UHGV virus genome: UHGV-1373362
DNA: 64,000 bases
DNA from: a virus
Strand: one strand, 5' to 3'
The notes beneath the pieces were generated by a model. That model was not told where the DNA came from. It ran no database searches and saw only the letters and a list, made by a program, of their open reading frames with translations. A program made the translations under genes and the position numbers. This document shows positions 3,187 to 63,004 of the stretch, piece after piece; within the stretch, counting starts at the first letter, position 1; every line of letters begins with the position of its first letter.

Positions 3187-3448
3187 ACTATAAGGGGCTA
3201 AATAAGATAACGCATCTGATGAGTCTTTGAAAATTAAGACGAAACACCTTCAATTAGGTGTCATGCGAGTGTTATTCATACAGTTGAAATAACGCTATTT
3301 GATTGCTAATACTCATGGTATGTGAATATAGTGAGTATTTAATTTAATATTAAGACAGTCTAGGAGTCTATAAAATTGTTACCGAAGAGACTAGAATGAA
3401 ACTTCTTTAATTAGAAGTCTAACAACTGAGTTAAAGATTAGTTCTATC

Positions 3449-6912: not shown

Positions 6913-7457
6913 GGGCTTGACAGGTTTTGACAAGTAATTACAAGGTAGGAAGACGTGTAGAGTTGGCACCAACTCTTATAAAATGATGCAAACAATAACT
7001 GGAGAAACTGAAGGTTTCAGAATGGCAGCCTAAGCTGCTGGCTTATTAGATATATCTAATTAAGTCGGGTTAATGGAGAAGACCTAGAAACAGAAGAGGT
7101 GTGGGAAGAAGCATTATAAAGCAGCCTACTTAACTTGAAAGCCAAAGGTTAGTAAAGCTGAAATTCTCTATGTCATTAAACAGGAATGCATGGTCTTAGG
7201 GTTGACTTACCCTTAATTATTGCACGTTCTCCAACGTAAATGGAGTGGTGGGGAGGATGACTTCGGTCAATCCAAGTTTGATAGTTTGTAATTTGGTCTA
7301 GTAAGGTTTGTGCTAAATTCCTGTCCTAGTAATCAAGGCACAGTCCAACAAAACTATCTACATGCCAGAACTCACTGGCTGATGTAATATAAATGAGACA
7401 CACGTTATCTTCTTATTGAGGATTATTTGGACGACGGTTCGAATCCGTCCAGGTCCA
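6913..7457 (+). ncRNA. candidate tmRNA (ssrA-like) or tRNA-like (Y-RNA-like) structured RNA
   Basis: 3' end GGACGACGGTTCGAATCCGTCCAGGTCCAC gives a T-arm (GACGG/CCGTC, loop TTCGAAT) followed by the acceptor 3' strand CAGGTCC+A. This is the same layout as the E. coli tmRNA 3' end. The complementary 5' strand GGGCTTG lies at 6913-6919, directly after the preceding stop codon. A short internal frame ...GFRMAA-TAA at about 6990-7033 ends in Ala-Ala, as tmRNA tag peptides do. About 780 nt here are noncoding. Confidence 0.3.
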
Positions 7458-7695
7458 CTAATGGATTAACGCCTATAATGAGTGCACTTGTTATAGGATG
7501 CTAATGATGCTACTTAGGAATAACTACTCCACAGGTAGGTAATTTAGAAACTTCTCAAAGTCATTGCAAGGGTGGAGAGAAGAAACTTATTACTGGTTTG
7601 GGAAATTTAAACCTATAGTGCTGGAGGCTAAATGATTTAGTAATGGGTTCGATTCCCTGTTAATCCACAGAACTAACTAATCAAATAATTAAAAC

Positions 7696-8663: not shown

Positions 8664-10412
8664 ATGGAATTTAGTAAGAAGGTTAAGAGCCTTGATAGGG
8701 CTGAGCAATCTCCTGAGAACAATGCGTTCATTAGGGAAGGGTTGAAAGAGTCTAATGTGACTCAAAGTGGTAATGGTGCTAAAAAGTATAGTACCAGTAA
8801 TGATGTATTTGTGGATAACTTTGCATCTATATCTAAGTTTGCAGAACCCCGTTCTTATGAGGATATAGCAAAAGATATGTACAAGTTGTGGAGTGTAAAT
8901 CCAGAAAAGTGTGTTAAGTTAGCCATCTATATTAGGATGATAACTAGGCAAACACAAGTACTCGTAGATAACAAGGTTTCTACAACTGAAGATGTACAAA
9001 GAGGACAGGGATTAAAGAATGAAGGTATTTTACGGTTTATTTGGTTGTCTATATATCATAACCAAGCATTCGTAGCCAATCTGCCATTCTTCATTAGCGC
9101 TGGTTCTTGGAAGGACATATTTGAGATGATGAGCCTTGATTTACAGTATCATGGTTGGGAAGGTCATAAATTGAATTGGAATTTCTTAAGTTCAACTGTA
9201 TTAGCCGGTTTAGCTAATGAAAATACATGTGAGCTAGTAAAGAAATATCTGCCTTCTATTAGATCTAGCAAAGACTGTGTTACTTTAGCTTCTAAGGCTA
9301 GGAGTATTGTAGGCAAATATATGGCTAATCGTATATTTGGGAAGAAGGGGGAAGAGAAGACAGAAGATACGATGAACCACATTCATCGTAAGTATCGTAA
9401 GTTCAAACAGAGTGGTACTGCACATGTTTGGCAGCAATTAATCGGACAAGGTAGAATGCTTGAAATTGATTTCAATACCATTCATGGACGTGCTTTAAGC
9501 CTATTGGTAGGCTCTAAATTCTTGAAAAATCAGGGATTGGTAGAGAAGTATTACCAATGGCTTGCATCCCGCAAAACGGTTAAATATACTGGATTTGTGC
9601 ATGAGCTGTTTGAACCACTTGGAAATAAATATTGGGCCTGCCCATTACCAGATTATCAGGAAATCACTATTAATAAGCAGTTTGAGCAATTAGTTGAAAC
9701 TGCCCGTAAGGATATGGACACTAACAGTAGGTTATTAGTCGTTAGAGACATTTCTAGCTCTATGACTTCACAGGCTGTGGGCAGTAACATGTCATCTTAC
9801 GCTATTGGTAAGGCAATGGCTCTCTATTTCTCTGCACTATTGGATGGTCCATTTAAGGATGCCTATGCTACATTTAGCAATACTTGTAAGCTTTGTAAAT
9901 GGCAAGGTAAGACTCCTATAGAGAAGTGGACAAACGATAATGATAGTAGATTTGGAAGTACCAACCTCCAATCTGTAGCAGATATGTTTGTCAAACTAAG
10001 AACTACAATGGGAGTATCCGAGAATGAGTTTCCAACAGGTGCACTGCTTATTAGTGATGGTGATTTTAACTGGTGTGGTACTGATGTGGCCAACTTTAAG
10101 GCATTTAGAGATAAACTACTTAAAGGTGGGTTTAGTGTGGAGTATGTAAACAACTTCAAATTAATCCTTTGGGATATTCCTAATGGATTCTATGGTAAGG
10201 GTAGACCTACTGTATTTGAAGATTTTGCTGATGCTCCAAATAACTTCTATATGAGTGGTTATGATCCAGCTGCTATAGCATTTATTATGGGAACTAAGGC
10301 ATTTAAAGCTACCCCCAAGAATGCAACAGAACTGTTCAATGCAGCTATGAACCAAACACTACTCAATATGGTAGTAATTCCTAAAGAGTATTATAAACGT
10401 AAAAAGAAGTAA
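8664..10412 (+). CDS. vWA domain protein, possibly TROVE/Ro60-like
   Basis: 582 aa. C-terminal von Willebrand A domain with MIDAS-like motif VVRDISSSM. Length and architecture (large N-terminal domain plus C-terminal vWA) resemble Ro60/TROVE-type proteins. The TROVE part is not verifiable by eye. Confidence 0.5.
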   Translation: MEFSKKVKSLDRAEQSPENNAFIREGLKESNVTQSGNGAKKYSTSNDVFVDNFASISKFAEPRSYEDIAKDMYKLWSVNPEKCVKLAIYIRMITRQTQVLVDNKVSTTEDVQRGQGLKNEGILRFIWLSIYHNQAFVANLPFFISAGSWKDIFEMMSLDLQYHGWEGHKLNWNFLSSTVLAGLANENTCELVKKYLPSIRSSKDCVTLASKARSIVGKYMANRIFGKKGEEKTEDTMNHIHRKYRKFKQSGTAHVWQQLIGQGRMLEIDFNTIHGRALSLLVGSKFLKNQGLVEKYYQWLASRKTVKYTGFVHELFEPLGNKYWACPLPDYQEITINKQFEQLVETARKDMDTNSRLLVVRDISSSMTSQAVGSNMSSYAIGKAMALYFSALLDGPFKDAYATFSNTCKLCKWQGKTPIEKWTNDNDSRFGSTNLQSVADMFVKLRTTMGVSENEFPTGALLISDGDFNWCGTDVANFKAFRDKLLKGGFSVEYVNNFKLILWDIPNGFYGKGRPTVFEDFADAPNNFYMSGYDPAAIAFIMGTKAFKATPKNATELFNAAMNQTLLNMVVIPKEYYKRKKK

Positions 10413-10413
10413 T

Positions 10414-11208
10414 ATGATTTCAATGAACACTATGCTTGCTAAGGTAGAGCACGCTGGATCATCCTTTAATAAGATGATTGCAGAGTACACACTATTCTTT
10501 AAGAACAAGCAATCAATGTTTAGAGGATTCAAGAAAACCTTTAAACCAAGAGAGGGTTTCAATGAAGACTCAAGGTACATGGGAACCGTTTTGGTAACAA
10601 CTACGGTAAATGAGAAGCTGGATTGGTTCGAAGAGAATGCAATACCTTATCTAAAGGATGTATTCTCAGTAGAGGCCACCAACTCAAGAGGTGCTGAACG
10701 TACAGAACTAGTAGTAGATGGTATATCATTTGGTAAACTAACTGCACTTGATTTGATGCGTCTAAAGACTATCCTTACTAATAAGGATATGGAATCTATG
10801 TATTCTAACATCCCAGTTCGTTCTGATTCTGAAGTATGGGAACCCTGCACTAATCCAGAATATGAAGGACGTGAGGTTTATCAAACTCCGATGACTGTTG
10901 GCGTGGTAAGAACATCAGAATCAGAGGAAGTAATCCTTAAAGATCCAAATCTTGATCCTGCCCATCTTCCTTCAAACTATAACGCTAAGGTTACAGTTAA
11001 GAAGAAAACAGTGGACACTGGTGATTATACATCACAAATGTACACGGGTGAGTGGACTCAAAGAGAGCGTGCTGAGTTACTAAGGAGAAGAAGTAAACTT
11101 CTCGCTGCAGTAACAGTAGCATTAAAGAAGATCAACGACAATGGAGTAGATCCTCAGAACTTGGACGTTGAATGTCTGATTGAATACTTGCACGGTAAAA
11201 AGAAATAA
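10414..11208 (+). CDS. hypothetical protein
   Basis: 264-aa ORF directly downstream of the vWA protein gene, likely co-transcribed. Confidence 0.45.
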   Translation: MISMNTMLAKVEHAGSSFNKMIAEYTLFFKNKQSMFRGFKKTFKPREGFNEDSRYMGTVLVTTTVNEKLDWFEENAIPYLKDVFSVEATNSRGAERTELVVDGISFGKLTALDLMRLKTILTNKDMESMYSNIPVRSDSEVWEPCTNPEYEGREVYQTPMTVGVVRTSESEEVILKDPNLDPAHLPSNYNAKVTVKKKTVDTGDYTSQMYTGEWTQRERAELLRRRSKLLAAVTVALKKINDNGVDPQNLDVECLIEYLHGKKK

Positions 11209-11356
11209 AACAAAATATTGACTAAAGCTTCAGCTTAAGCCTCAGCATTACTAAATCCTAGATATTTAGCATAAGCATTGGGTCAAGAGCTTTAGCTTTA
11301 GCTTTAACGTAGAATGACAGTAAGCTACCTGATAATAAATTATCCACCTATTAAAC

Positions 11357-11410
11357 ATGGGTTCGAATCCCATACGCCCCTCTATTTCTATTATTAACTA
11401 CATGGGGCGT
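11357..11410 (+). other. tRNA-like fragment: T-arm plus acceptor-like hairpin (permuted order)
   Basis: T-arm ATGGG-TTCGAAT-CCCAT, then ACGCCCC, a 23-nt loop, then perfectly complementary GGGGCGT. No 5' acceptor strand lies upstream. Confidence 0.3.
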
Positions 11411-11518
11411 TGGTGAAGGGGTTTAACACGATAGGCTATAATAAAGCTTCACTTTAAAGTTACTGAAAGCATTCTACACATCTAGGGGTTATTACTGAGG
11501 ATTTTTGGGGTAATCTCT

Positions 11519-11592
11519 AGGGGTTTAACTCAATTGGTTAGAGTACATGAGTGTTAATCATGGTGTTGGGGGTTCGAGTCCCCCAACCCCTA
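11519..11592 (+). tRNA. tRNA-Asn (GTT)
   Basis: Acceptor AGGGGTT/AACCCCT, anticodon loop GTGTTAA, T-arm GGGGG-TTCGAGT-CCCCC. Confidence 0.8.
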
Positions 11593-11692
11593 CATTCGTT
11601 TTATTTAGGGTTTAACGGAGACGAGAATTTAGGTTTTTTATTGTATTTGGTTTCTGGTCTGCCAACCTGAGAAGGTGTAACAGGCCAAACAC

Positions 11693-11788
11693 AAAGGGAT
11701 GCTGGAATGGTATACAGGCTATCCATTGATGATAGTTTACACAATTCTAGGAAGTGTATGTCTGAGGGTTCGAATCCCTCTCCCTTTA
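11693..11788 (+). tRNA. tRNA, class-II-like with long variable arm; anticodon loop reads TTG (ambiguous)
   Basis: Acceptor AAAGGGA/TCCCTTT (7 bp perfect). T-arm GAGGG-TTCGAAT-CCCTC. Anticodon stem CTATC/GATAG with loop CATTGAT. About 28-nt variable region, 96 nt total. Non-canonical. Confidence 0.5.
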
Positions 11789-12060
11789 CATCTTGAAGAA
11801 TTTTTCATTTTTCTTGTCATTAAAGGGTTATTTACCTGTGAAGGCCAGTAACCCATTTTTATGTATTATTAATATTCCGTATCTATATACAACTTTAGTA
11901 TTAATATTATGATATTATATGTGGCATAAGTTTGTAATAACACTAATTACACATTTTAACATTAATATGTTTGTGGAGTCATAAAGAAGCAGTATCTTTG
12001 TGTCCATAACCGTTGGGATAACGGGAATGTGTTTGTGTTTTATTTATTCCCATTGTTGAG

Positions 12061-12144
12061 GGGAGTGCGCCAAAGTTGGAGAGTTGGGCTTGACTGTAAA
12101 TCAAGTGCCTTCGGGCTGAGTAGGTTCGAATCCTACCACTCCCA
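12061..12144 (+). tRNA. tRNA-Tyr (GTA)
   Basis: Acceptor GGGAGTG/CACTCCC, anticodon arm CTTGA-CTGTAAA-TCAAG, long variable arm, T-arm GTAGG-TTCGAAT-CCTAC. Confidence 0.8.
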
Positions 12145-12213
12145 CAACAAGATCTGTTAGAGTAACTTCTAACACTGGATGCATTGGTCTGGAGAGATAA
12201 ATGCATCAAAAAT

Positions 12214-12285
12214 GCAGGTGTAGCACAATGGTTAGTGCTCCAGTCTTCCAAACTGGAGATGAGGGTTCGATTCCCTTCACCTGCT
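12214..12285 (+). tRNA. tRNA-Gly (TCC)
   Basis: Acceptor GCAGGTG/CACCTGC, anticodon arm CCAGT-CTTCCAA-ACTGG, T-loop TTCGATT. Confidence 0.8.
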
Positions 12286-12365
12286 CAAAAAGCTGGTTGG
12301 TTGTGTTATTAGGGTACCCTAATACACTGGTTTGCACCAGCCTAAACAAAAATGCAGACAATCAT

Positions 12366-12437
12366 GGGCCGGTAGCATAATTGGGAATGCACTAGTTTTG
12401 CACACTGGAAGATTGGGTTCGAATCCCACCGTGTCCA
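12366..12437 (+). tRNA. tRNA-Ala (TGC)
   Basis: D-arm GCAT-AATTGGGA-ATGC, anticodon loop TTTGCAC, T-loop TTCGAAT. Acceptor GGGCCGG with one mismatch. Confidence 0.65.
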
Positions 12438-12728
12438 CACTTCCTTCTTCCTATAGGAAGTGTCTATAGGCGTGAATGAAAACCGACGGTTACAGGGTTC
12501 CCCAATACTCTCTGAGGGTAATACGAGAACGTTGCTTGAGGACACAACGTAATGAGTCCTTAGTATCACACTCACTTGAACGTGTGAAGAGCATTCGCTA
12601 ATAAGGCTCTTAATAAAGATTTTTAGTGGAGGTTGGATGAAAAGCTAGCAAAGTAATCCAATGACAGGGATCTTAGGTTATTAACTTATGAAGTTACAGT
12701 TATAATTTAGAGATTCCTTTATTAATAT

Positions 12729-12812
12729 CGCAGAGTCGAGAAGTGGTATCTCACTAGTCTCATAAGCTAGAGCATCCGAAAGATGTCGTAGGTTCGATTC
12801 CTACCTCTGCAA
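12729..12812 (+). tRNA. tRNA with CAT anticodon (Met/fMet/Ile2 type) and an unusual long variable arm
   Basis: Acceptor CGCAGAG/CTCTGCA with C1-A72 mismatch, which is initiator-like. D-arm GAGA-AGTGGTA-TCTC. Anticodon arm CTAGT-CTCATAA-GCTAG. 17-nt variable hairpin. T-arm GTAGG-TTCGATT-CCTAC. Confidence 0.6.
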
Positions 12813-12828
12813 CTAATTTAATATATTA

Positions 12829-12994
12829 TGGAAGAGAAACTAGACTTAATTATTCAAAAATTAAATGAATTGCTATATTTAGCAAAACGTATTCATAAAG
12901 ATACTGAACCATCTACTGAGAATAATGTCTCTGAGTATCTCCTTAATGTGTTAGGTGATGTAACTGGTGATATTCTTATGCAAGGATTCACTGG
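12829..12994 (+). CDS. small hypothetical protein (55 aa) inside the tRNA array
   Basis: ATG..TAA ORF MEEKLDLIIQKLNELLYLAKR... lying between tRNAs. Not in the supplied track because it is under 60 aa. Confidence 0.3.
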
Positions 12995-13006
12995 AAGACA
13001 ATAACG

Positions 13007-13081
13007 TGTGGGGTGGTAGCAGTTGGTAGCTCACTAGGCTCATAACCTAGAGGTCGGCGGTTCGAATCCGTCCCCCGCGCC
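13007..13081 (+). tRNA. tRNA with CAT anticodon (Met/Ile2 type), atypical acceptor
   Basis: Anticodon arm CTAGG-CTCATAA-CCTAG is perfect. T-arm GGCGG-TTCGAAT-CCGTC. The acceptor pairs only with G-U wobbles (TGTGGGG/CCCCGCG). Confidence 0.5.
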
Positions 13082-13165
13082 TATTACACCAGGCTATGCT
13101 GAGTGAATTTTCACTTAGGACTGTTGTAGTTACGAAGACAAAGGGTGAATAATTTGTCTATTTAT

Positions 13166-13186
13166 TGAAGGGAACAGACAGCAAAC
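13166..13186 (+). promoter_or_regulatory. conserved motif TGAAGGGAAC-nACAGCAAAC (copy 1 of 4)
   Basis: Near-identical 20-nt motif also at 14932, 16902 and 19554, each ahead of a tRNA sub-cluster. Confidence 0.4.
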
Positions 13187-13349
13187 ATCTTCATCTAATA
13201 ATTGAACTTCTAATTGACCGTGGGCGAACATCCCATAAATGTTCTAAGCTGTGAATAGCCCCTACTATGCTGGAACAAGTATAGTGTCGATTATCCTAAA
13301 TTGGGTGGATAAAAGACATAAAATAAAACTCCCGTGTTCCCTGTTTCAT

Positions 13350-13422
13350 AGGTCTATCCTCTAATTGGTTAGGAGACGTGACTGATACTCACGCAATCCC
13401 AGTTCAAGTCTGGGTAGACCTA
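13350..13422 (+). tRNA. tRNA-Ile (GAT)
   Basis: Acceptor AGGTCTA/TAGACCT, anticodon arm CGTGA-CTGATAC-TCACG, T-arm CCCAG-TTCAAGT-CTGGG. Confidence 0.8.
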
Positions 13423-13428
13423 CTTTAT

Positions 13429-13502
13429 AGTCCCTTAGCTCAGTTGGTGAGAGTGTCTGGCTTACATCCAGAAGGTCGTTGGTTCGAATCCAACAGGGAC
13501 TA
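13429..13502 (+). tRNA. tRNA-Val (TAC)
   Basis: Acceptor AGTCCCT/AGGGACT, anticodon arm TCTGG-CTTACAT-CCAGA, T-arm GTTGG-TTCGAAT-CCAAC. Confidence 0.8.
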
Positions 13503-13821
13503 CACTGGTATCATAGACGATTAACAAAATGATATAACTCTTAGTTAGTAATCCTGAACGATACATATAGGGAGTATCGGAAGAGTTATTCTGGTGGAGA
13601 ATCGGGAGTCCAGAACCTATCTTAGTAAAGCACGTGAGGCTAGCGTGACGTAGACATTCCTATCCCTGACAGCAAATATGGAATCCACATCGTAGGGTGG
13701 CATTGGTACTACAGCAAGGGTAGTTGTTTAACTGTAGTTATGTATGAACGTGTTAGTTGTCTTCATAGGAAGAAGTACAACTAGGTGTAGTCTCCACCAC
13801 CTTACAATAGTGGAGCACATG

Positions 13822-13897
13822 GGGAGTTAGCTCAGTTGGTTGGTAGCTTCGGACTGTTAATCCGATGGTCGTGGGTTCGAGTCCCAGAGGGGTGACA
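13822..13897 (+). tRNA. tRNA-Asn (GTT)-like, probable pseudo-tRNA (acceptor stem does not pair)
   Basis: Canonical D-arm, anticodon arm TCGGA-CTGTTAA-TCCGA and T-loop TTCGAGT. But the 5' GGGGAGT and 3' AGGGGTG strands are not complementary. Confidence 0.4.
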
Positions 13898-14077
13898 ACA
13901 CAAAGATTAACATATTTACTCATCTTAAACAGTAAAGTTATGAAATCATTATTAATTAAAGCTGTTAAGTGGTATGTCAAACAATCATCTATGACTTATG
14001 TTTGGCTACCGACAGGGACTTATCCAACTAAGGATTAAGTTCCATATTTAGAGGTGAGTAAGCTAAAGAACATTTAT

Positions 14078-14169
14078 GGAGGTGTAAGCCTAATTGGTAA
14101 GGCAGTAGTCTTGAAAACTACCAGTAATCGTGTAAAAGCGATGTGTCAGTTCGAGTCTGACTACCTCCT
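14078..14169 (+). tRNA. tRNA-Ser (TGA)
   Basis: Acceptor GGAGGTG/TACCTCC, anticodon arm GTAGT-CTTGAAA-ACTAC, long variable arm, T-arm GTCAG-TTCGAGT-CTGAC. Confidence 0.8.
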
Positions 14170-14204
14170 CTACCTATTATATAACAACTTAAACTAACTA
14201 AAAG

Positions 14205-14504
14205 ATGAATATGAGATTTGTATCAGTTACTAAACTAAGTAACAATCGTAAACGTAGATTATCTTTGGGTATACTTAGGGCAATTAACTCTAATGCTCAA
14301 TTAAATTCAATAGCTGACTCTGGATTTAGGGAAGGTAATGTCAAACTCTTAAATGATCGCATAGAGGAGCTTAAACTTATATTACTTTCCCCTTGGCCCA
14401 AGTTTCCCCGCAAGGACAAAAAGCTATACAAAAAGAATGCAATTGCACTATATAATGCATATGTATTTGTAAAGGGATGGCTAGAGGAAACCTTAAACCA
14501 GTAG
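14205..14504 (+). CDS. hypothetical protein
   Basis: 99-aa basic ORF inside the tRNA array. Confidence 0.4.
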   Translation: MNMRFVSVTKLSNNRKRRLSLGILRAINSNAQLNSIADSGFREGNVKLLNDRIEELKLILLSPWPKFPRKDKKLYKKNAIALYNAYVFVKGWLEETLNQ

Positions 14505-14761
14505 GGTATAGTAGGGATAACTCTAGATTGTATTTTAGGTTAATTATTAATGGTAATCATGTATTAGATGGGTTCTTTTCATTTAAGAAGGAATTGTTCT
14601 ACGTAACTACCAGAAATAAGATACTTAATGGCAATGACTGGGATATTCTTACTAGAGAGTTAAGTAAATTGGATTATGAATATTCTAACAATGTTGATGA
14701 TTACTATTACCAGCAATGGTTAGAGAGTAAAGTAATATTTAATCATGGGAATAATTACTGA
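14477..14761 (+). CDS. hypothetical protein
   Basis: 94-aa ORF overlapping the previous ORF end by 28 nt. Confidence 0.35.
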   Translation: MARGNLKPVGYSRDNSRLYFRLIINGNHVLDGFFSFKKELFYVTTRNKILNGNDWDILTRELSKLDYEYSNNVDDYYYQQWLESKVIFNHGNNY

Positions 14762-14931
14762 CATAGCACTATCGCAGTCTATTGGGGCTGTAATGGATGG
14801 TGCATTTATAGAAAGTGCTAAAGAAACTTTAGAAAAGGAAGAATCAACTAATGAAGCTTCAGAAGAACATAATGTTGGCAGAGGTTATTTGGAAACTCAT
14901 TCAGAACTTTTCTACTAAGGCATATTATTAA

Positions 14932-14953
14932 AGTGAAGGGAACTTACAGCAAA
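14932..14953 (+). promoter_or_regulatory. conserved motif GTGAAGGGAACTTACAGCAAAC (copy 2)
   Basis: Same motif as at 13166, 16902 and 19554. Followed by AATTGACCG about 30 nt downstream, as in copy 1. Confidence 0.4.
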
Positions 14954-15007
14954 CAATCATAGTATCAATCTTTTAAATTGACCGACTAAACATGTTCCCT
15001 GTTCCTT

Positions 15008-15081
15008 GCTCCGGTAGCTTAACTGAATAAAGCAGCATCCTTCTAAGATGCGTTATATGGGTTTGAGTCCCATCTGGAGTA
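15008..15081 (+). tRNA. tRNA-Arg (TCT)
   Basis: D-arm GCTT-AACTGAAT-AAGC, anticodon arm GCATC-CTTCTAA-GATGC, T-arm ATGGG-TTTGAGT-CCCAT. Confidence 0.75.
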
Positions 15082-15153
15082 CTAAGCGGGTTTTAAAACA
15101 AAATATTCTCCTTGTTACCGCTGACAGGGGTGCGACTGTTTAACGCACTACAT

Positions 15154-15226
15154 GGGGTTATAGCTCAGTTGGTAGAGCGAGGGATTGAAGATCCCTGCGT
15201 CGGCAGTTCGAATCTGTCTAACCCCG
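15154..15226 (+). tRNA. tRNA-Phe (GAA)
   Basis: Acceptor GGGGTTA/TAACCCC, D-arm GCTC-AGTTGGTA-GAGC, anticodon arm AGGGA-TTGAAGA-TCCCT, T-arm GGCAG-TTCGAAT-CTGTC. Confidence 0.85.
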
Positions 15227-15311
15227 CTTCGCTAATAAGTGTAATTCGACATGATATTAGATTTGATTAGTATTAGTGCAGAAGGTGTAGTGATACAGTT
15301 TCTGTGCGTCT

Positions 15312-15399
15312 GGAGAGTAAACCTTGATGGTGATAGGGACTACCTGCTAAGTAGTTTCGTACATAAAAAGTGTATGTGGTTCGATTCCACTGCTCTCCG
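15312..15399 (+). tRNA. tRNA-Ser (GCT)
   Basis: Acceptor GGAGAGT/GCTCTCC, anticodon arm ACTAC-CTGCTAA-GTAGT, long variable arm, T-loop TTCGATT. Confidence 0.75.
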
Positions 15400-15442
15400 C
15401 GAATGTTTGGGACTTTATTATAACTTTTAACATTAAATTATT

Positions 15443-15739
15443 ATGAATGAAGTTCAACCTCTTGATCCATCTACACTAGAACAGTCGGATCCTATTCCTA
15501 ATAGCATTATAGCTGTTATGAATCAATTGATTAAGAAAGGATGGAATGGTGCATGTAGCATCGTTCGAGTGAATGAGGCACTAGGTGTCATATATTTAGT
15601 TACAAACTTCCCCATTGAGGTTATTAAGAGAAATGGTTGGATAGAATCTGCTAAAGAGGTCTATCAACGAATTGGCTACTTGGTAACTGAGGTTGGAGAA
15701 GGTGATGACAGATATATGGAATTTCGTAAGGCTTCTTAA
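15443..15739 (+). CDS. hypothetical protein
   Basis: 98-aa ORF between tRNA-Ser and tRNA-Glu. Confidence 0.45.
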   Translation: MNEVQPLDPSTLEQSDPIPNSIIAVMNQLIKKGWNGACSIVRVNEALGVIYLVTNFPIEVIKRNGWIESAKEVYQRIGYLVTEVGEGDDRYMEFRKAS

Positions 15740-15743
15740 TACT

Positions 15744-15815
15744 GCTGGGTTCGAATAATGGTTAGTTCGACGCACTTTCGATGCGTAGATAGGGGTTCGA
15801 TTCCCCTACCCAGTA
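15744..15815 (+). tRNA. tRNA-Glu (TTC)
   Basis: Acceptor GCTGGGT/ACCCAGT, anticodon arm ACGCA-CTTTCGA-TGCGT, T-arm AGGGG-TTCGATT-CCCCT. Confidence 0.8.
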
Positions 15816-15999
15816 CCTTGTAGTCCTCCTTAACCCTTAATAGGGTAGTTAGGCTACGCTGTGAACGAACAGAGGAGGGGAGTTCACACGTTGGTTAGCG
15901 ACGTAGTACACAATGGTGGAATAGAAACGGCTAACATCCACTTTTGGTCATTCTTATAATACTAGTTAAATTCCGAAAGGGAGTTAGAATGGCCAATAT

Positions 16000-16071
16000 A
16001 CTCCTATCTACTAATGGTTAGGTAATTGCCCTCTCAAGGCAAAAATACGGGTTCGAATCCCGTTGGGAGTA
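16000..16071 (+). tRNA. tRNA-Glu (CTC)
   Basis: Acceptor ACTCCTA/TGGGAGT, anticodon arm TTGCC-CTCTCAA-GGCAA, T-arm ACGGG-TTCGAAT-CCCGT. Confidence 0.7.
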
Positions 16072-16214
16072 CTTAACTACTAGGTTGAACTCAAACTTCC
16101 GCCTCGCGAGCCAAATGTCTGAGGAGAAATTTAAAGGATTTTTAGATAGAAGGAATCCACATAGGATTTAAAACAGAAGAAATAGGGCTAATCCTTCATC
16201 CTAGTAGTATTAAC

Positions 16215-16285
16215 GAGTGTGAGGTGTACTGGTGGCATAAGCGACTGTCTATCGTGAGGAGGGGTTCGATTCCCACACATTCGGC
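16215..16285 (+). tRNA. degenerate tRNA-like sequence (possible Asp-GTC pseudo-tRNA)
   Basis: T-loop GGGGTTCGATTCCC and a candidate anticodon loop CTGTCTA. The D-arm and acceptor do not fold canonically. The track ORF 16224..16478 overlaps it, and the true CDS start is probably 16296. Confidence 0.25.
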
Positions 16286-16295
16286 AATTAAATTT

Positions 16296-16478
16296 ATTAT
16301 TATGTTAACAGAAGAAGAAGTAAAAAATTATTTGGCGGAACTTAAAGAACATGCTGAGTCTGGAGATCCAGAATGTTCTCACTATGATGCTGATAGAATC
16401 TTATGTGATATTGTATCTAAGTTGGGATATAAAGAAATCGTAGACATTTGGGAAAAAGTTCCTAAGTGGTATGCATAA
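16296..16478 (+). CDS. small hypothetical protein (60 aa)
   Basis: ATG at 16296 downstream of the tRNA-like element, sequence MLTEEEVKNYLAELKEH... Confidence 0.4.
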   Translation: MIMLTEEEVKNYLAELKEHAESGDPECSHYDADRILCDIVSKLGYKEIVDIWEKVPKWYA

Positions 16479-16544
16479 TTAACCTCCAGCTCACGAGGTA
16501 TATAAGAAAGGATGCCGGACTTGCAGGTGTAACGAGATAAATAC

Positions 16545-16616
16545 CTGCATTTTCGAGGCGATGGCGTAATTGGCTAACGTGCTGCCCTGTCACGGCAGAG
16601 TTTGGGGTTCGAGTCC
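16545..16616 (+). tRNA. tRNA-Asp (GTC)
   Basis: Acceptor GAGGCGA/TCGTCTC, anticodon arm CTGCC-CTGTCAC-GGCAG, T-loop GGGGTTCGAGTCCCC. Confidence 0.7.
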
Positions 16617-16901
16617 CCTCGTCTCGGCAAAAATTTGATGGATATGAAAGTATTTACTCCAGAGGATGCTAAGCAACACCATGTTGCTAGTATTCCAGAC
16701 TTCAGGACACTATTATAACTCGTATACTACGTTATAGTCCTGAGGAAATCACTAGATCATCTATATTTTCGAACAGGTGGTTAGACATAGAAGACCTATA
16801 CAGGCAAAATGGCTGGGAGGTTGAATATGACAAGCCAGCATACAATGAGAGTTATAGTGCTAGGTTTATATTTAAACCGAAGCAAAGTATTTAGAAATTT
16901 A

Positions 16902-16923
16902 TGAAGGGAACTTACAGCAAAAC
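16902..16923 (+). promoter_or_regulatory. conserved motif TGAAGGGAACTTACAGCAAAAC (copy 3)
   Basis: See copies at 13166, 14932 and 19554. Confidence 0.4.
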
Positions 16924-16953
16924 TTATCTAAATTCAATTGGTGATAGAAAGAC

Positions 16954-17001
16954 GTGGGTTCGAATCCCACCTATAACCGTCAAAGTCCTAATGGGTTATA
17001 G
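16954..17001 (+). other. tRNA-like fragment: T-arm plus acceptor-like hairpin (permuted order)
   Basis: T-arm GTGGG-TTCGAAT-CCCAC, then CTATAACC, a 15-nt loop, then GGTTATAG (8-bp perfect complement). Same architecture as 11357-11410. Confidence 0.3.
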
Positions 17002-17051
17002 TCGTCTAGTGGATAGGATGTATTAGAAATAGGCATAGTTCCCTGTTGTTT

Positions 17052-17134
17052 GCCGTCTTCGCATAGTGGTTGATTGCACTGGATTTGTAATCCAGCTTCG
17101 AAAGAACACGTCAGTTCGAATCTGACAGACGGCT
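17052..17134 (+). tRNA. tRNA-Thr (TGT) with unusually long variable arm
   Basis: Acceptor GCCGTCT/AGACGGC, anticodon arm CTGGA-TTTGTAA-TCCAG, 14-nt variable region, T-arm GTCAG-TTCGAAT-CTGAC. Confidence 0.7.
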
Positions 17135-17156
17135 CTAGTCTCATTGTCGTAAGGCG

Positions 17157-17585
17157 ATGAGACTTAATTTTTCTGAGATTGTTATATGTAAAATGAATTA
17201 TGAACGTATTATGGGTAGCTTTAAAGAATGTTTAAGAAAAAGTGGTCAAAGTGTGTTAGATGCAAGAGCACAGAACTTGTATGAAATGACCAAAATTGAG
17301 GAGGATAGATTCATTCAGGAATGCAAAATGAGAGTCTTGAGACTTCAAAATGAACTAAATACACATAGAGACTTATCTGTGAAGTCTACTACCTCATTGG
17401 AAGTAGGAAGTGGATTTATGCCTAAGGAGTGGGTTGCTAAACGCCACGATTTAGAACGTAAGCTTCGTGTGGCTAAAATCGAGTATGCTCTGGCATTAAA
17501 GGTTGATTCTGAGGAATTTCCTGCTGACGATGCTGAAGAGGTAATTGACGCTAAGGCATTGTTGGAGGAAGATAACATTAAATAG
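17157..17585 (+). CDS. hypothetical protein
   Basis: 142-aa ORF (alternative start at 17193). First gene of a three-gene operon-like block. Confidence 0.45.
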   Translation: MRLNFSEIVICKMNYERIMGSFKECLRKSGQSVLDARAQNLYEMTKIEEDRFIQECKMRVLRLQNELNTHRDLSVKSTTSLEVGSGFMPKEWVAKRHDLERKLRVAKIEYALALKVDSEEFPADDAEEVIDAKALLEEDNIK

Positions 17586-17586
17586 A

Positions 17587-18501
17587 ATGGGAGCAGGTAG
17601 TTATTCATATGCAGCTTATTCTGCCATATCTGATGCAAGAGGGCTTGCGAGTGCAACGACAGAAGCCCTATTTAAGAATAGGCACATTTCTGTAGACGCT
17701 GACATTAAAACCTCAAATGTTAATGCAAGACTCTTTAATACAGAAGTAAAGAAAGAAGCTATTAACGTGGGTGTTAGAGAGTGTAGAGATACTGAGGAAC
17801 ATCCTGATGTTACCCCAATCATCATTGCTCTTGACGTTACAGGTTCAATGCGTAATACACCCCATACAATGCTTAGAGACCAATTCCCTAAGATAATGGG
17901 TGTCTTACAACAATTAAATGTTAAAGATCCCCAAATCTTGTTTATGGCAGTAGGGGATCACGAGTGGGATAGATACCCCATTCAGGTGTGTCAGTTTGAA
18001 TCTGATACTACTAAGCTGGTAGATTCTCTACAAACTCTAGTATTAGAGGGGGGAGGTGGTCCAAATTATGGTGAGAGTTACCTATTAGCTTGGTTAATAG
18101 CTGGGTATCATACTGAAACTGATGCATGGTACAAGAGGGGTAAAAAGGGTTACTTATTTACCATTGGTGATGAGGAAACTCTTAGAGAGGTTGATGAGGA
18201 ATACTTATCGGATGGATTGGGTTATCAGAAAGGCGCTGGAGTTATTACAGCTAAAGAGGCCTTAAAGAAAGCTAAGGAACAGTATAACGTATTTCACATT
18301 CACATTACTAATGGAAGCCGTGGTTCAACTCCACGACCATCTTGGAGAAGTTATTTGGGTCAAAATGTTCTAACATCTGACTCTAAGGACATTCATACTG
18401 TAATCGGGGAGGTCATTAGTAAACATGAAGGGATTAACAACCTGGAAGTTACTGATGAAAACTCTCCATCTAATCAAGAAGAAGCAAATTATACTTATTA
18501 A
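17587..18501 (+). CDS. vWA domain protein (TerY-like?)
   Basis: MIDAS motif IIIALDVTGSM near the N-terminus of a roughly 305-aa protein. Start taken at the ATG after the upstream stop; the in-frame ATG at 17545 would overlap the upstream gene. Confidence 0.6.
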   Translation: MGAGSYSYAAYSAISDARGLASATTEALFKNRHISVDADIKTSNVNARLFNTEVKKEAINVGVRECRDTEEHPDVTPIIIALDVTGSMRNTPHTMLRDQFPKIMGVLQQLNVKDPQILFMAVGDHEWDRYPIQVCQFESDTTKLVDSLQTLVLEGGGGPNYGESYLLAWLIAGYHTETDAWYKRGKKGYLFTIGDEETLREVDEEYLSDGLGYQKGAGVITAKEALKKAKEQYNVFHIHITNGSRGSTPRPSWRSYLGQNVLTSDSKDIHTVIGEVISKHEGINNLEVTDENSPSNQEEANYTY

Positions 18502-18502
18502 G

Positions 18503-61584: not shown

Positions 61585-61799
61585 CCACCAGGCAGGAAAT
61601 ATTACTTCGTTTAGCTTGTGCTGCACTACAGGGAGGAATGTCCATTGACGAGGTGTGTGACAGTATACAAGATATTAAAGGAGATAATGATTCTTCTCTA
61701 TGGGATATTGCTGACATACTTCCATGTGTAGAATTTGATGCAGATATTCCTTCTGAGGAAGATATTGAATTAGTTACTGGCAAAAAGGATTTTTATTAG
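61581..61799 (+). CDS. hypothetical protein
   Basis: 72-aa ORF. Confidence 0.3.
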   Translation: MTTRQEILLRLACAALQGGMSIDEVCDSIQDIKGDNDSSLWDIADILPCVEFDADIPSEEDIELVTGKKDFY

Positions 61800-63004
61800 T
61801 GGATATTTTAGTCAGCAAAGACAATAAGGGCAAAATTAGAGTTGTCAAGATTGACTATGAGTGGGACGATCCTAGGCATGGTTATGTTATAAGGAGAAGT
61901 ACTTCTCAATATGGGGGTAAAATCACCATCCAACCTGAGATATGGGTCTTTAATGGTAAAGTAAAGAGGACTGTTACCGAACAGGTTAAACTAGAATATA
62001 ACTCTCATTTAAAGAAATATCAAGATAAGGGATATAAAATATTACCATCCTCTATTCAGTTGGAGGACAGTAAAGCAGTATCCGACTTCGTTCAAGAACA
62101 TATGGGCGAGGGTGTTTCAGACACTAACGGGTTTAAGAAACATATGCTGGCTAAACAGCATGATAAGGTAGCAACTTCGGTATTTGATAAAATTGAATAC
62201 TGGTATGCTAGTCGTAAAATAGATGGAGTGAGATGTTCATTCTATTGGAAGGATGGAGAAGTTAGAAGTGCTAGTAGGGGTGGTGGAGCATATGACCAGT
62301 CAACTACGCATATAAGACTTCATCCATCTGTGATTTCTTTATTCCAAAAATTTCCAGATCTAGTTTTAGATGGGGAACTTTATAAACATGGAAGATCTTT
62401 ACAACAAATTAGTGGTGCTGCAAGGCTTGAGAAAAACGCAGTAGCATGTGATTGGTTGGAATATTATATTTATGATGTCATGGATAGTTCTAAATCATTC
62501 GAAGAGAGGTTAGAAATACTACATGACGTAGAAGCAGAACTTGGTATAGTTGGGTTTGATCCTAACAGAGAATACAAGGATGACATGCTTAAAGTTCAGT
62601 TAGTTCCACACGAGGAAGTAAAGGGCTGGGCTAATATACAAAAGTTACATAATAAGTATGTAGAGGAGGGGTTTGAGGGTGTTGTGATTAGAGACCCATC
62701 TAAGCCCTATAACTTTGGCGGTAGAACTAATGCTATGATCAAAGTTAAAATGTATCAAGATGCGGAATTTAAAATCGTTGGTTATGAAGATGGGCTGCGT
62801 CCAGAAGACATGGTATTCGTATGTGAGACTGAATTAGGTATTAAGTTTGAAGCTAAACCTATGGGTCCACGTGAATTAAAGTGGGAGTACCTTGATAGAA
62901 TGGATGAAATCATTGGTAAGATGGCTACTGTAAAGTACTTCTATCTTAGCGATGAAGGATGTCCTCTGCAGCCAGTTCTGAAGTGTATTAGGGATTATGA
63001 GTAA
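61799..63004 (+). CDS. ATP-dependent DNA ligase
   Basis: Adenylation motif I KIDGVR, then ligase/OB-fold regions. 401 aa. Confidence 0.8.
   Translation: MDILVSKDNKGKIRVVKIDYEWDDPRHGYVIRRSTSQYGGKITIQPEIWVFNGKVKRTVTEQVKLEYNSHLKKYQDKGYKILPSSIQLEDSKAVSDFVQEHMGEGVSDTNGFKKHMLAKQHDKVATSVFDKIEYWYASRKIDGVRCSFYWKDGEVRSASRGGGAYDQSTTHIRLHPSVISLFQKFPDLVLDGELYKHGRSLQQISGAARLEKNAVACDWLEYYIYDVMDSSKSFEERLEILHDVEAELGIVGFDPNREYKDDMLKVQLVPHEEVKGWANIQKLHNKYVEEGFEGVVIRDPSKPYNFGGRTNAMIKVKMYQDAEFKIVGYEDGLRPEDMVFVCETELGIKFEAKPMGPRELKWEYLDRMDEIIGKMATVKYFYLSDEGCPLQPVLKCIRDYE

Follow-up and report, generated by a model that had tools for sequence, protein, structure and literature searches.

Bacterial class II transfer RNAs (tRNAs; Leu, Ser, Tyr, and Sec) carry a hairpin between the anticodon and T arms, and the textbook rule restricts such long variable arms in bacteria to Leu, Ser, and Tyr (PMC9976931). 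Two described groups join a long arm to the anticodon of a class I amino acid, namely the nematode nev-tRNAs (PMC3333845) and the bacterial allo-tRNAs (PMC5389517). Both keep a Leu/Ser body and mis-assign codons, and allo-tRNAs have acceptor/T branches of 8/4 or 9/3. Here, we analyze three tRNA genes of the virus genome UHGV-1373362, in a stretch of 64,000 nucleotides (nt) that we refer to as the window: an initiator-type tRNA(CAU), a tRNA-Thr(UGU), and a 96-nt tRNA-like gene (Table 1). The first two resemble class II tRNAs in the position of their hairpin, and the Thr family also has the 3-bp D stem and enlarged D loop. They differ from them in that they bear the anticodon, acceptor, and discriminator marks of Thr and formylmethionine (fMet) instead of Leu, Ser, or Tyr, and in that the tRNA(CAU) keeps a class I D arm. 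Unlike the nev- and allo-tRNAs, these phage tRNAs combine 7/5 branches with cognate marks, and therefore imply no recoding.

The three genes are part of an array of 24 tRNAs called by ARAGORN between 11.5 and 24.8 kb, all on the + strand, in which the Rfam tRNA model finds 25 matches at or above the gathering score; no window tRNA encodes its CCA end. ARAGORN calls the genes at 11693-11789 (97 nt), 12729-12813 (CAT, 85 nt), and 17052-17135 (TGT, 84 nt), and each matches the Rfam model over its full length, with 40.0, 53.6 (CAT), and 56.8 bits (Thr) against a gathering score of 29. A sequence-only reading had placed three tRNA genes here with variable regions of 17 (CAT), 14 (Thr), and 28 nt, which sequence, ARAGORN, and Rfam all bear out. 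The span it gave as a whole (12729-17134) holds the CAT and Thr genes and misses the 96-nt gene, which lies at 11693-11788. Its central observation, a class I anticodon together with a long hairpin-forming variable region, is correct for the CAT and TGT tRNAs, both of which exceed the 10 nt and form the stem-loop by which class II variable regions are defined. Each of 10 strain variants has all three genes. The CAT tRNA does not vary among them, the Thr tRNA has 1 substitution in 1 strain, and the 96-nt gene exists in 2 versions that differ in its second hairpin.

Relatives were gathered by exact-protein look-ups and a homologue search, with the open reading frame (ORF) of the DUF7873 family as synteny anchor. 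Alignment to homologous phage tRNAs, one of the checks proposed by the sequence-only reading, reveals that the stems of the extra arms covary among relatives. Judged by this covariation and by their retention in the 10 strain variants, the hairpins are not chance features. That the genes exist and are conserved, how they covary and are distributed, and which identity marks they carry are matters of observation in what follows; taken together, we consider it likely that all three are real, selected genes of the array, rather than mis-folds or Ser/Leu missense tRNAs, and that they represent an initiator-type tRNA(CAU), a cognate tRNA-Thr(UGU), and a five-helix RNA with a UUCUAGG loop.

The Thr gene has its anticodon UGU (G35, U36) in the canonical loop UUUGUAA, a 3-bp D stem (GCA/UGC), and a D loop of 11 nt. 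Its variable region, CTTCGAAAGAACAC (17096-17109), forms the stem TTC/GAA around the loop GAAA, which ARAGORN draws as a 3-pair arm. The acceptor end reads G1-C72 and C2-G71, followed by U73. G1-C72 and C2-G71 are the acceptor identity pairs of Escherichia coli threonyl-tRNA synthetase (ThrRS). Acceptor pairs and anticodon together define Thr identity (PMC9976931). The tRNA would most likely be charged by ThrRS and read ACA and ACG, as well as ACU if U34 is modified; these three account for 86% of the Thr codons in window ORFs.

The long-arm Thr(UGU) family comprises 36 distinct sequences, nearly all of which have G1-C72 and C2-G71, with U73 or A73 as the discriminator base. The arm stem is at least 3 bp long in 32 of the 36, with 24 distinct stems and a GNRA tetraloop in 23; when arms are shuffled as a control, 29% of trials each do as well. 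In a gap-free alignment of eight members (A2), all 3 arm pairs have changed on both sides and remain 100% paired, while G1-C72 and C2-G71 are invariant. For example, the orthologue in relative L090 has the arm TCC-GTAA-GGA where the window has TTC-GAAA-GAA, a compensatory change. The D arm differs too, with a 3-bp stem in 32 of 37 long forms against a 4-bp stem in 21 of 26 short forms. Because the long forms go with the 3-bp D stem, the family has a class II style core and not a mere insertion. The last variable nucleotide is C in 31 of 37 long forms, opposite the invariant G15.

Long-arm Thr tRNAs are widespread. BLAST against cultured phages finds equally long tRNA-Thr genes in Aeromonas phage PX29 (85 nt) and Pseudomonas phage HPP-Temi (87 nt), and in IMG/VR the Thr anticodon arm and T loop occur with a long spacer at 36 loci and with a class I spacer at 17. 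A scan of 185,579 species genomes yields 20 long-arm Thr loci, most of them lone chromosomal genes (Acetobacteraceae/Roseomonas, Rhodospirillales, and Eremiobacterota), and one, in an array of 26 tRNAs, probably from a phage inside a metagenome-assembled genome. Four relatives of the window phage (L087, L089, L108, and L111) have a class I Thr(UGU) of a different lineage instead, so the long and class I forms appear as interchangeable modules. Beside its 87-nt tRNA-Thr, HPP-Temi, a cultured jumbo phage, has an 88-nt "tRNA-Phe" (L144 385-472) that is long-armed and whose anticodon loop, GCGAAAAGC, is irregular.

In the tRNA(CAU), the variable region AGCATCCGAAAGATGTC (12771-12787) holds the stem GCATC/GATGT, and a 12-nt hairpin stands within an otherwise normal variable loop. 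The proposal of an unusual insertion suits this gene well, as the order is AG-[hairpin]-TC and the D arm is still of class I (4-bp stem and 7-nt loop) without the 3-bp D stem of class II. Most likely, a small hairpin was inserted into the variable loop of a class I body. Class I relatives have a loop of five bases here, for instance AGGTC in the counterpart from Vibrio phage nt-1, which is 89% identical over its 5′ half.

Several marks of this tRNA are those of initiators. In a survey of 234 genomes, A11-T24 and G12-C23 are "complete discriminators of fMet", and C1, G2, C3, G70, C71, and A72 are nearly invariant in fMet tRNAs (PMC1635315); formylase chiefly recognizes a 1:72 mismatch together with 2:71 and 3:70, and within the three G-C pairs G30 matters most (PMC5389676). 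The window gene has the D stem G10-A11-G12-A13/U22-C23-U24-C25, which supplies A11-U24 and G12-C23, a C1 that ARAGORN draws opposite A72, G2-C71, C3-G70, and A73. Its anticodon stem reads A29-U41, G30-C40, and U31.G39. The acceptor and D-stem marks, A73, and G30-C40 are shared with bacterial tRNAfMet, and the A-U pair at 29:41 with its natural au/GC/gu stem variants in Mycoplasma and alpha-proteobacteria (PMC5389676, PMC1635315); from these the gene differs in having U.G rather than G-C or G.U at 31:39 and in its 17-nt hairpin-bearing variable region. The tRNA would accordingly carry methionine, be formylated, and be used for initiation. One feature weighs against this: the stem follows R29G30G31..Y39C40Y41 at 29:41 and 30:40, but 31:39 is inverted (U.G, that is Y:R) and so falls outside the conserved pattern (PMC1635315), and initiator function is therefore not assured.

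The armed form is again a family. Related phages whose DUF7873 protein is 64-72% identical keep the CAT arm with other stems (ACACT/GGTGT in L087 and CTCCT/GGGAG in L089), a pattern scan of IMG/VR returns 19 further long-arm CAT loci, and the arm covaries, with 14 distinct stems in 15 sequences. Position 1:72 is mismatched in 14 of 17 distinct long-arm CAT tRNAs, a weak A/U pair in the other 3, and never G-C, whereas it is firmly paired in 23 of 46 short-arm CAT tRNAs; on this ground we regard the long-arm CAT tRNAs as an initiator-derived family. The window contains three more CAT tRNAs. By published rules, the one at 19895 is of Ile2 type (G3-C70, C4-G69, and C5-G68) and the one at 21155 of elongator Met type (C3-G70 and C11-G24), and because both are present, the gene at 12729 fills the initiator slot. 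The third, at 13007-13081, is initiator-like and somewhat irregular, with the anticodon stem AGG..CCU, U1.G72, and a bulged U in the D stem; the tandem pair 12729/13007 is retained in L087 and L110. The elongator Met gene (21155-21229) has an A31.C39 mismatch at the bottom of its anticodon stem, which is kept in a strain variant with an otherwise different stem.

The 96-nt gene differs from both. The sequence-only reading took its CATTGAT hairpin (hairpin 1) for an anticodon arm, possibly TTG, and the hairpin within the 28 nt from GATAG to the T stem (hairpin 2) for a variable arm. Infernal draws the 5-bp stem CUAUC/GAUAG with the loop CAUUGAU, which would give A33 and UUG. The label Ile(GAT) assigned by ARAGORN is rejected, as its stem needs two mismatches. 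Gln(UUG) is rejected as well: position 33 is A and not U, and the orthologous loops are unrelated, with 3-9 nt, or their hairpin is absent. An ordinary tRNA-Gln(UUG) is located elsewhere in the window, at 19654. BLAST of the gene against phage genomes gives no match. Two pattern searches of IMG/VR based on CATTGAT returned one unrelated sequence in one case and no hit in the other, a first hint that this loop is not the conserved part.

Synteny identifies the orthologues. In every relative, the second tRNA after DUF7873 shares its acceptor, D, and T arms with the window gene and contains TTCTAGG. In six (L088, L090, L108, L111, L118, and L120) the gene is 76-80 nt long and TTCTAGG is the loop of the sole hairpin between the D and T arms; ARAGORN labels three of these orthologues tRNA(cta). 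The window, L087, L109, L110, and many IMG/VR contigs have an additional hairpin between the D arm and the TTCTAGG hairpin. The loop of this additional hairpin differs by lineage (cattgat, attaggg, gattagtcg, ttgatat, gagat, aatg, gctg, and atgcaaa); those of 3-5 nt cannot serve as anticodon loops. By contrast, TTCTAGG is the only invariant loop among the relatives found by synteny. The pair that closes it is A-U in 13, G-C in 3, and U.G in 2 sequences; it fails to pair only in the window (A.A) and in a single strain variant. A spacer of class I size follows the hairpin (TGTCT, 5 nt, in the window). When hairpin 1 is deleted in silico, ARAGORN calls the window sequence tRNA(cta). All five helices are supported by alignment A3, in which 98.3% of cells are paired and both partners have changed in 16 of the 24 pairs. 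The TTCTAGG stem is lengthened to 6-8 positions with a near-constant mismatch at 30:40.

Read from these alignments, hairpin 1 is a dispensable extra arm and hairpin 2 the conserved, presumably functional hairpin. As the CATTGAT hairpin is dispensable, there is no Gln(UUG) tRNA at 11693-11788. The functional center of the RNA would be the UUCUAGG loop, which in the shorter orthologues is a CUA anticodon loop. The reverse history is possible too, in which the anticodon arm of an ancestral class II Leu(UAG) tRNA decayed and the loop of its extra arm was kept; in L087 the loop of hairpin 1 is a regular AUUAGGG, and the window Leu tRNAs have a similar D arm and likewise A73. A mimic of Y RNA or YrlA type for the Ro-like protein encoded upstream is rejected, because the RNA ends in an acceptor stem with normal tRNA topology and has no Rfam support: at E<=1, Rfam gives only tRNA matches in 10500-26000, and no Y-RNA-type match reaches the gathering score anywhere in the window.

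The Ro/TROVE-like and DUF7873 ORFs adjoin the array upstream in all relatives. Next to them come two tRNA genes whose anticodon loops are, across relatives, the least canonical. The first of the two, at 11519-11592, encodes an ordinary Asn(GTT) here; the orthologous genes of L087, L089, and L090 have odd anticodon loops, namely CAUUUAA (A33), CGUUUAA (G33), and the 6-nt CAUUAA. Related phages also carry tRNA(UCA) and tRNA(CUA) genes that may be stop-codon suppressors (L090 6916-6989 and 11226-11303; L109 4069; L108 11194; and L111 11205).

Among the alternatives, the one that fares best concerns this gene alone: a working amber (UAG) suppressor, with hairpin 2 as anticodon arm (CUA, U33, and G37) and a novel extra arm between the D and anticodon arms, that serves stop read-through or late-gene recoding. 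The invariance of UUCUAGG at the same locus in all relatives, the covarying closing pair, the 5-nt variable loop of class I type, and the tRNA(cta) calls for the 76-80 nt orthologues and for the hairpin-1-deleted window sequence all speak for it, as does the tRNA(UCA) of relatives. The gene further resembles the suppressor tRNA(CUA) of recoded phages in its U33 and CUA, its place in an early-region array, and its large gut-type phage. It departs from them in the hairpin between the D and CUA arms, in its lengthened and mismatched stem (6-8 positions, 30:40), and in its genome: no TAG recoding is seen in the ~84 kb formed by the window and 10 kb on each side, out of ~185 kb. There are no in-frame stops in the 10 kb on either side of the window, and TAG ends 15 of 86 window ORFs, where read-through would gain few codons. 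The window copy has A.A at both positions that flank the UUCUAGG loop, which weighs against amber suppression and also against our main reading of this RNA. A G37 that follows A36 is also unusual for suppressors that read UAG. Overall, we treat amber suppression as a possibility, and a somewhat doubtful one.

Long arms are not restricted to Thr and CAT. In 8 of the 10 strain variants, a block that the window lacks encodes a long-arm Trp(CCA) (87 nt) and Lys(UUU) (86 nt), and elsewhere among viral loci we find long-arm Asn(GUU), in 4 of 19 distinct Asn sequences, as well as His, Cys, Ile(UAU), Phe, Glu, and Pro tRNAs; this sample is biased toward contigs seeded on Thr and CAT, so that the frequencies are indicative only. 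Under the identity rules of PMC9976931, the discriminators on these long-arm tRNAs are the cognate ones for Asn (G73), Lys (A73, 3 of 4), and Cys (U73). The block in the 8 variants reads Asn-Arg(ACG)-Trp(CCA)-Pro-Cys-Lys(TTT), and at its site (13823-13897) the window has a chimeric pseudo-tRNA in which the 5′ part of Asn(GTT) is joined at the T loop to the 3′ end of Lys(TTT). Given the intact block in those variants and the chimera here, the window and L079 lost ~1.1 kb, including two long-arm tRNAs, by T-loop recombination.

Could the arms be tolerated junk insertions in redundant tRNA genes, with the 96-nt gene a pseudogene? The array does contain tRNA debris (the chimera at 13823-13897 and fragments at 16215-16283 and 16935-16975), genes are gained and lost between strains, the window copy of the 96-nt gene has two A.A mismatches beside its conserved loop, and L087, L089, L108, and L111 do with an ordinary class I Thr(UGU). 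Decay is nevertheless improbable, as compensatory changes keep every helix, the extra arms included, across diverged phages. In the Thr family GNRA loops are enriched, the D arm is co-adapted, and the long form outnumbers the short one in IMG/VR for this anticodon arm. Genomes of Acetobacteraceae and Eremiobacterota also have this architecture fixed in a chromosomal tRNA-Thr that stands alone.

The altered identity raised by the sequence-only reading fares worse. Under this account, the extra arm recruits seryl- or leucyl-tRNA synthetase (SerRS or LeuRS), which ignore the anticodon, and Ser or Leu is inserted at Thr and Met codons as with nev- and allo-tRNAs, which provide the precedent (PMC3333845, PMC5389517). 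LeuRS requires A73 and tertiary features of the core (PMC9976931), and A73 is present in the CAT tRNA and some Thr family members. Bacterial tRNASer, however, conserves G1-C72, G2-C71, G73, and a long arm (PMC9976931), a set found in neither gene: C2-G71 is invariant in the Thr family and the window Thr tRNA has U73, while the CAT tRNA has C1xA72 and A73. Also, the Thr arm (3 bp, 14 nt) is of Tyr/Leu size and smaller than in the Ser tRNAs of this data set, which typically have 16-21 nt, and the compact class I D arm of the CAT tRNA is without the 20a/20b D-loop features of Leu tRNAs. Mischarging would affect the sole Thr tRNA of the window, on which 86% of Thr codons rely, and the long-arm Asn, Lys, and Cys tRNAs carry cognate discriminators as well. 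We thus find Ser or Leu charging unsupported and very unlikely.

A prediction artifact, in which a forced cloverleaf produces the hairpins and another fold yields ordinary class I tRNAs, is hardly tenable even though the Ile(GAT) anticodon of the 96-nt gene was indeed forced and minimum-energy RNAfold structures of single sequences are not all cloverleaves, because genes of 83-96 nt are too long for a class I cloverleaf, Infernal treats the surplus nucleotides as inserted in the variable region, pairing falls from 98-99% to 26-56% when partners are slid by 1-3 columns, and no alternative class I fold removes the hairpins of CAT and TGT, for which the misfolding suggested by the sequence-only reading is rejected.

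Exact-protein look-ups place the window in a phage genome of ~180-187 kb that is present in more than 50 metagenome blocks; related fragments derive from human faeces. The GenBank phage collection holds no close relative that we could find, and IMG/VR searches with a single PurZ-like or Ro-like protein returned no relatives. The window has a G+C content of 36%, has nearly every ORF on the + strand, and encodes genes for replication and nucleotide metabolism. Just beyond its 3′ end are genes for an enzyme of the CCA-adding family and for a polynucleotide kinase-phosphatase (PNKP); with the ligase gene inside the window (Table 1), they resemble a kit for tRNA repair and maturation.

Table 1. Positions of the tRNA and tRNA-like genes, their arms, and neighboring genes (window coordinates unless a locus is named).
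Feature	Position	Strand	Remarks
Ro/TROVE-like ORF (DUF2828/DUF7788)	8664-10412		Directly upstream of array; L088 homologue matches TROVE
DUF7873 ORF	10414-11208		Directly upstream of array
Five-helix tRNA-like gene, 96 nt	11693..11788	+	Acceptor, D arm, hairpin 1, hairpin 2, T arm; A73; Rfam 40 bits
Hairpin 1 (former "anticodon arm"), CTATC-CATTGAT-GATAG	11719..11735	+	Covarying stem
Hairpin 2 (former "variable arm"), TACAC-AA-TTCTAGG-AA-GTGTA	11738..11758	+	Loop TTCTAGG at 11745-11751
Initiator-type tRNA(CAU) with extra arm, 84 nt	12729..12812	+	No encoded CCA; ARAGORN, Rfam 53.6 bits
Extra arm of tRNA(CAU), AG-CATC-CGAAA-GATG-TC	12771..12787	+	5 pairs counting G.U; sequence, ARAGORN fold
Second initiator-like tRNA(CAU), class I size	13007..13081	+	190 nt downstream of long-arm gene; ARAGORN; Rfam 40.3 bits, model positions 4-67 only
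tRNA-Thr(UGU), class II architecture, 83 nt	17052..17134	+	Sole Thr tRNA in window; ARAGORN, Rfam 56.8 bits
Extra arm of tRNA-Thr, C-TTC-GAAA-GAA-CAC	17096..17109	+	Sequence, fold
ATP-dependent ligase with RNA_ligase domain	61799-63004
PolyA_pol/CCA-adding family gene adjoining PNKP gene	L142 14706-16414		Downstream of window

Other elements lie in and around the array. The repeat TGAAGGGAAC..ACAGCAAA occurs at 13166-13187, 14934-14955, 16902-16923, and 19554-19575, that is 75-185 nt upstream of Ile 13350, Arg 15008, Thr 17052, and Gln 19654. At the first three of these tRNAs the complementary GTTCCCTG stands just 5′ of the tRNA start, so that a long-range stem could enclose the leader; the repeat may serve as a signal for processing or mobility. 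Isolated remnants of T arms or of partial tRNAs are found at 11355-11372, 16215-16283, 16935-16975, and 17987-18005, one of which scores 25 bits with the Rfam tRNA model. The ORF at 18425-19546 belongs to the adenylosuccinate-synthetase family and matches phrog_1211 (PurZ-like phage enzymes), which may hint at 2-aminoadenine DNA. Upstream of the array, the Rfam transfer-messenger RNA model is matched over its full length at 6913-7460 (80.5 bits against a gathering score of 47), where the 548-nt span indicates a large insertion and ARAGORN makes no call, and the RAGATH-1 hammerhead ribozyme model is matched at 3352-3424 (69 bits against a gathering score of 56.3).

As to what the arms do, several phage defenses act on tRNAs. 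The AriB nuclease of PARIS cuts tRNALys(UUU), tRNAThr(UGU), and tRNAAsn(GUU) on the 3′ strand of the anticodon stem while a second subunit holds the D loop, and T5 versions of the Lys, Thr, and Asn tRNAs rescue infection (PMC12409363). The tRNA destroyed by P2-OLD is tRNAThr(UGU), and cells are rescued by phage tRNAThr (PMC12445682). Septu cuts the variable loop of tRNATyr (PMC13096335), and the T5 tRNATyr acts against retrons (PMC11555353). The genes described here resemble the rescuing phage tRNAs in their isoacceptors (Thr-UGU in the window; Lys-UUU and Asn-GUU in strain variants or other phages), their large arrays, and the accompanying tRNA repair genes. They differ from them in that known escape is by point changes in the anticodon stem-loop or D loop, with no added arm described.

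Because the isoacceptors most often armed here overlap the nuclease targets and the phage has repair and CCA-adding genes, defense is our best lead. Extra arms would alter the shape that a tRNA presents to tRNA-targeting nucleases or other host factors and leave the cognate synthetase undisturbed, and armed tRNAs would let the phage keep supplying tRNAs that host defenses destroy. That the arms are kept for such a change of shape is the leading idea, and we put it forward tentatively. A fuller version is more doubtful still: phages would rebuild the tRNAs targeted by defense (Thr-UGU, Lys-UUU, and Asn-GUU, and the initiator as a target of VapC type) with an arm that blocks nuclease docking and leaves synthetase and formylase unaffected, and the five-helix RNA would be a new architecture, as amber suppressor or decoy.

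Several observations count against a role in defense. Close to where AriB cuts, the window Thr tRNA retains UAAUC, together with the C41 that is also found in tRNAAsn, a weak AriB substrate; it likewise retains a paired CNG motif like those cleaved by P2-OLD. Since these nuclease motifs are still there, any protection would be steric. Cys, Trp, His, Phe, Glu, and Pro tRNAs can have long arms as well, so the overlap with known nuclease targets is only partial. In addition, PARIS and P2-OLD are E. coli systems and may not match the host of this phage, and the papers on them do not mention variable arms (PMC12409363, PMC12445682).

The literature that we searched holds no description of long-arm Thr or Met phage tRNAs, nor any report of an initiator tRNA with a long arm, of a cognate long-arm phage tRNA, or of an RNA with a hairpin at the D/anticodon junction, which does not by itself prove their absence; long-arm examples already stand in GenBank phage records, annotated as "tRNA-Thr". 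The rule that long arms are found only on Leu, Ser, Tyr, and Sec tRNAs underlies the teaching of tRNA identity and gene annotation. It holds as a textbook rule, but sequence collections contain many exceptions, and those described here are recurrent, selected, and keep their cognate identity. The Thr(UGU) exceptions form a family that spans dozens of phages, including cultured ones, and some bacterial lineages, and an initiator-type family is armed as well. The five-helix RNA, with its invariant CUA-containing loop, would represent a suppressor of new architecture or else mimic a tRNA without decoding. Long-arm tRNAs offer natural scaffolds for orthogonal initiator and elongator tRNAs and, if the arm protects from immune tRNA nucleases, they would represent a new structural mode of counter-defense, distinct from the point mutations known so far.

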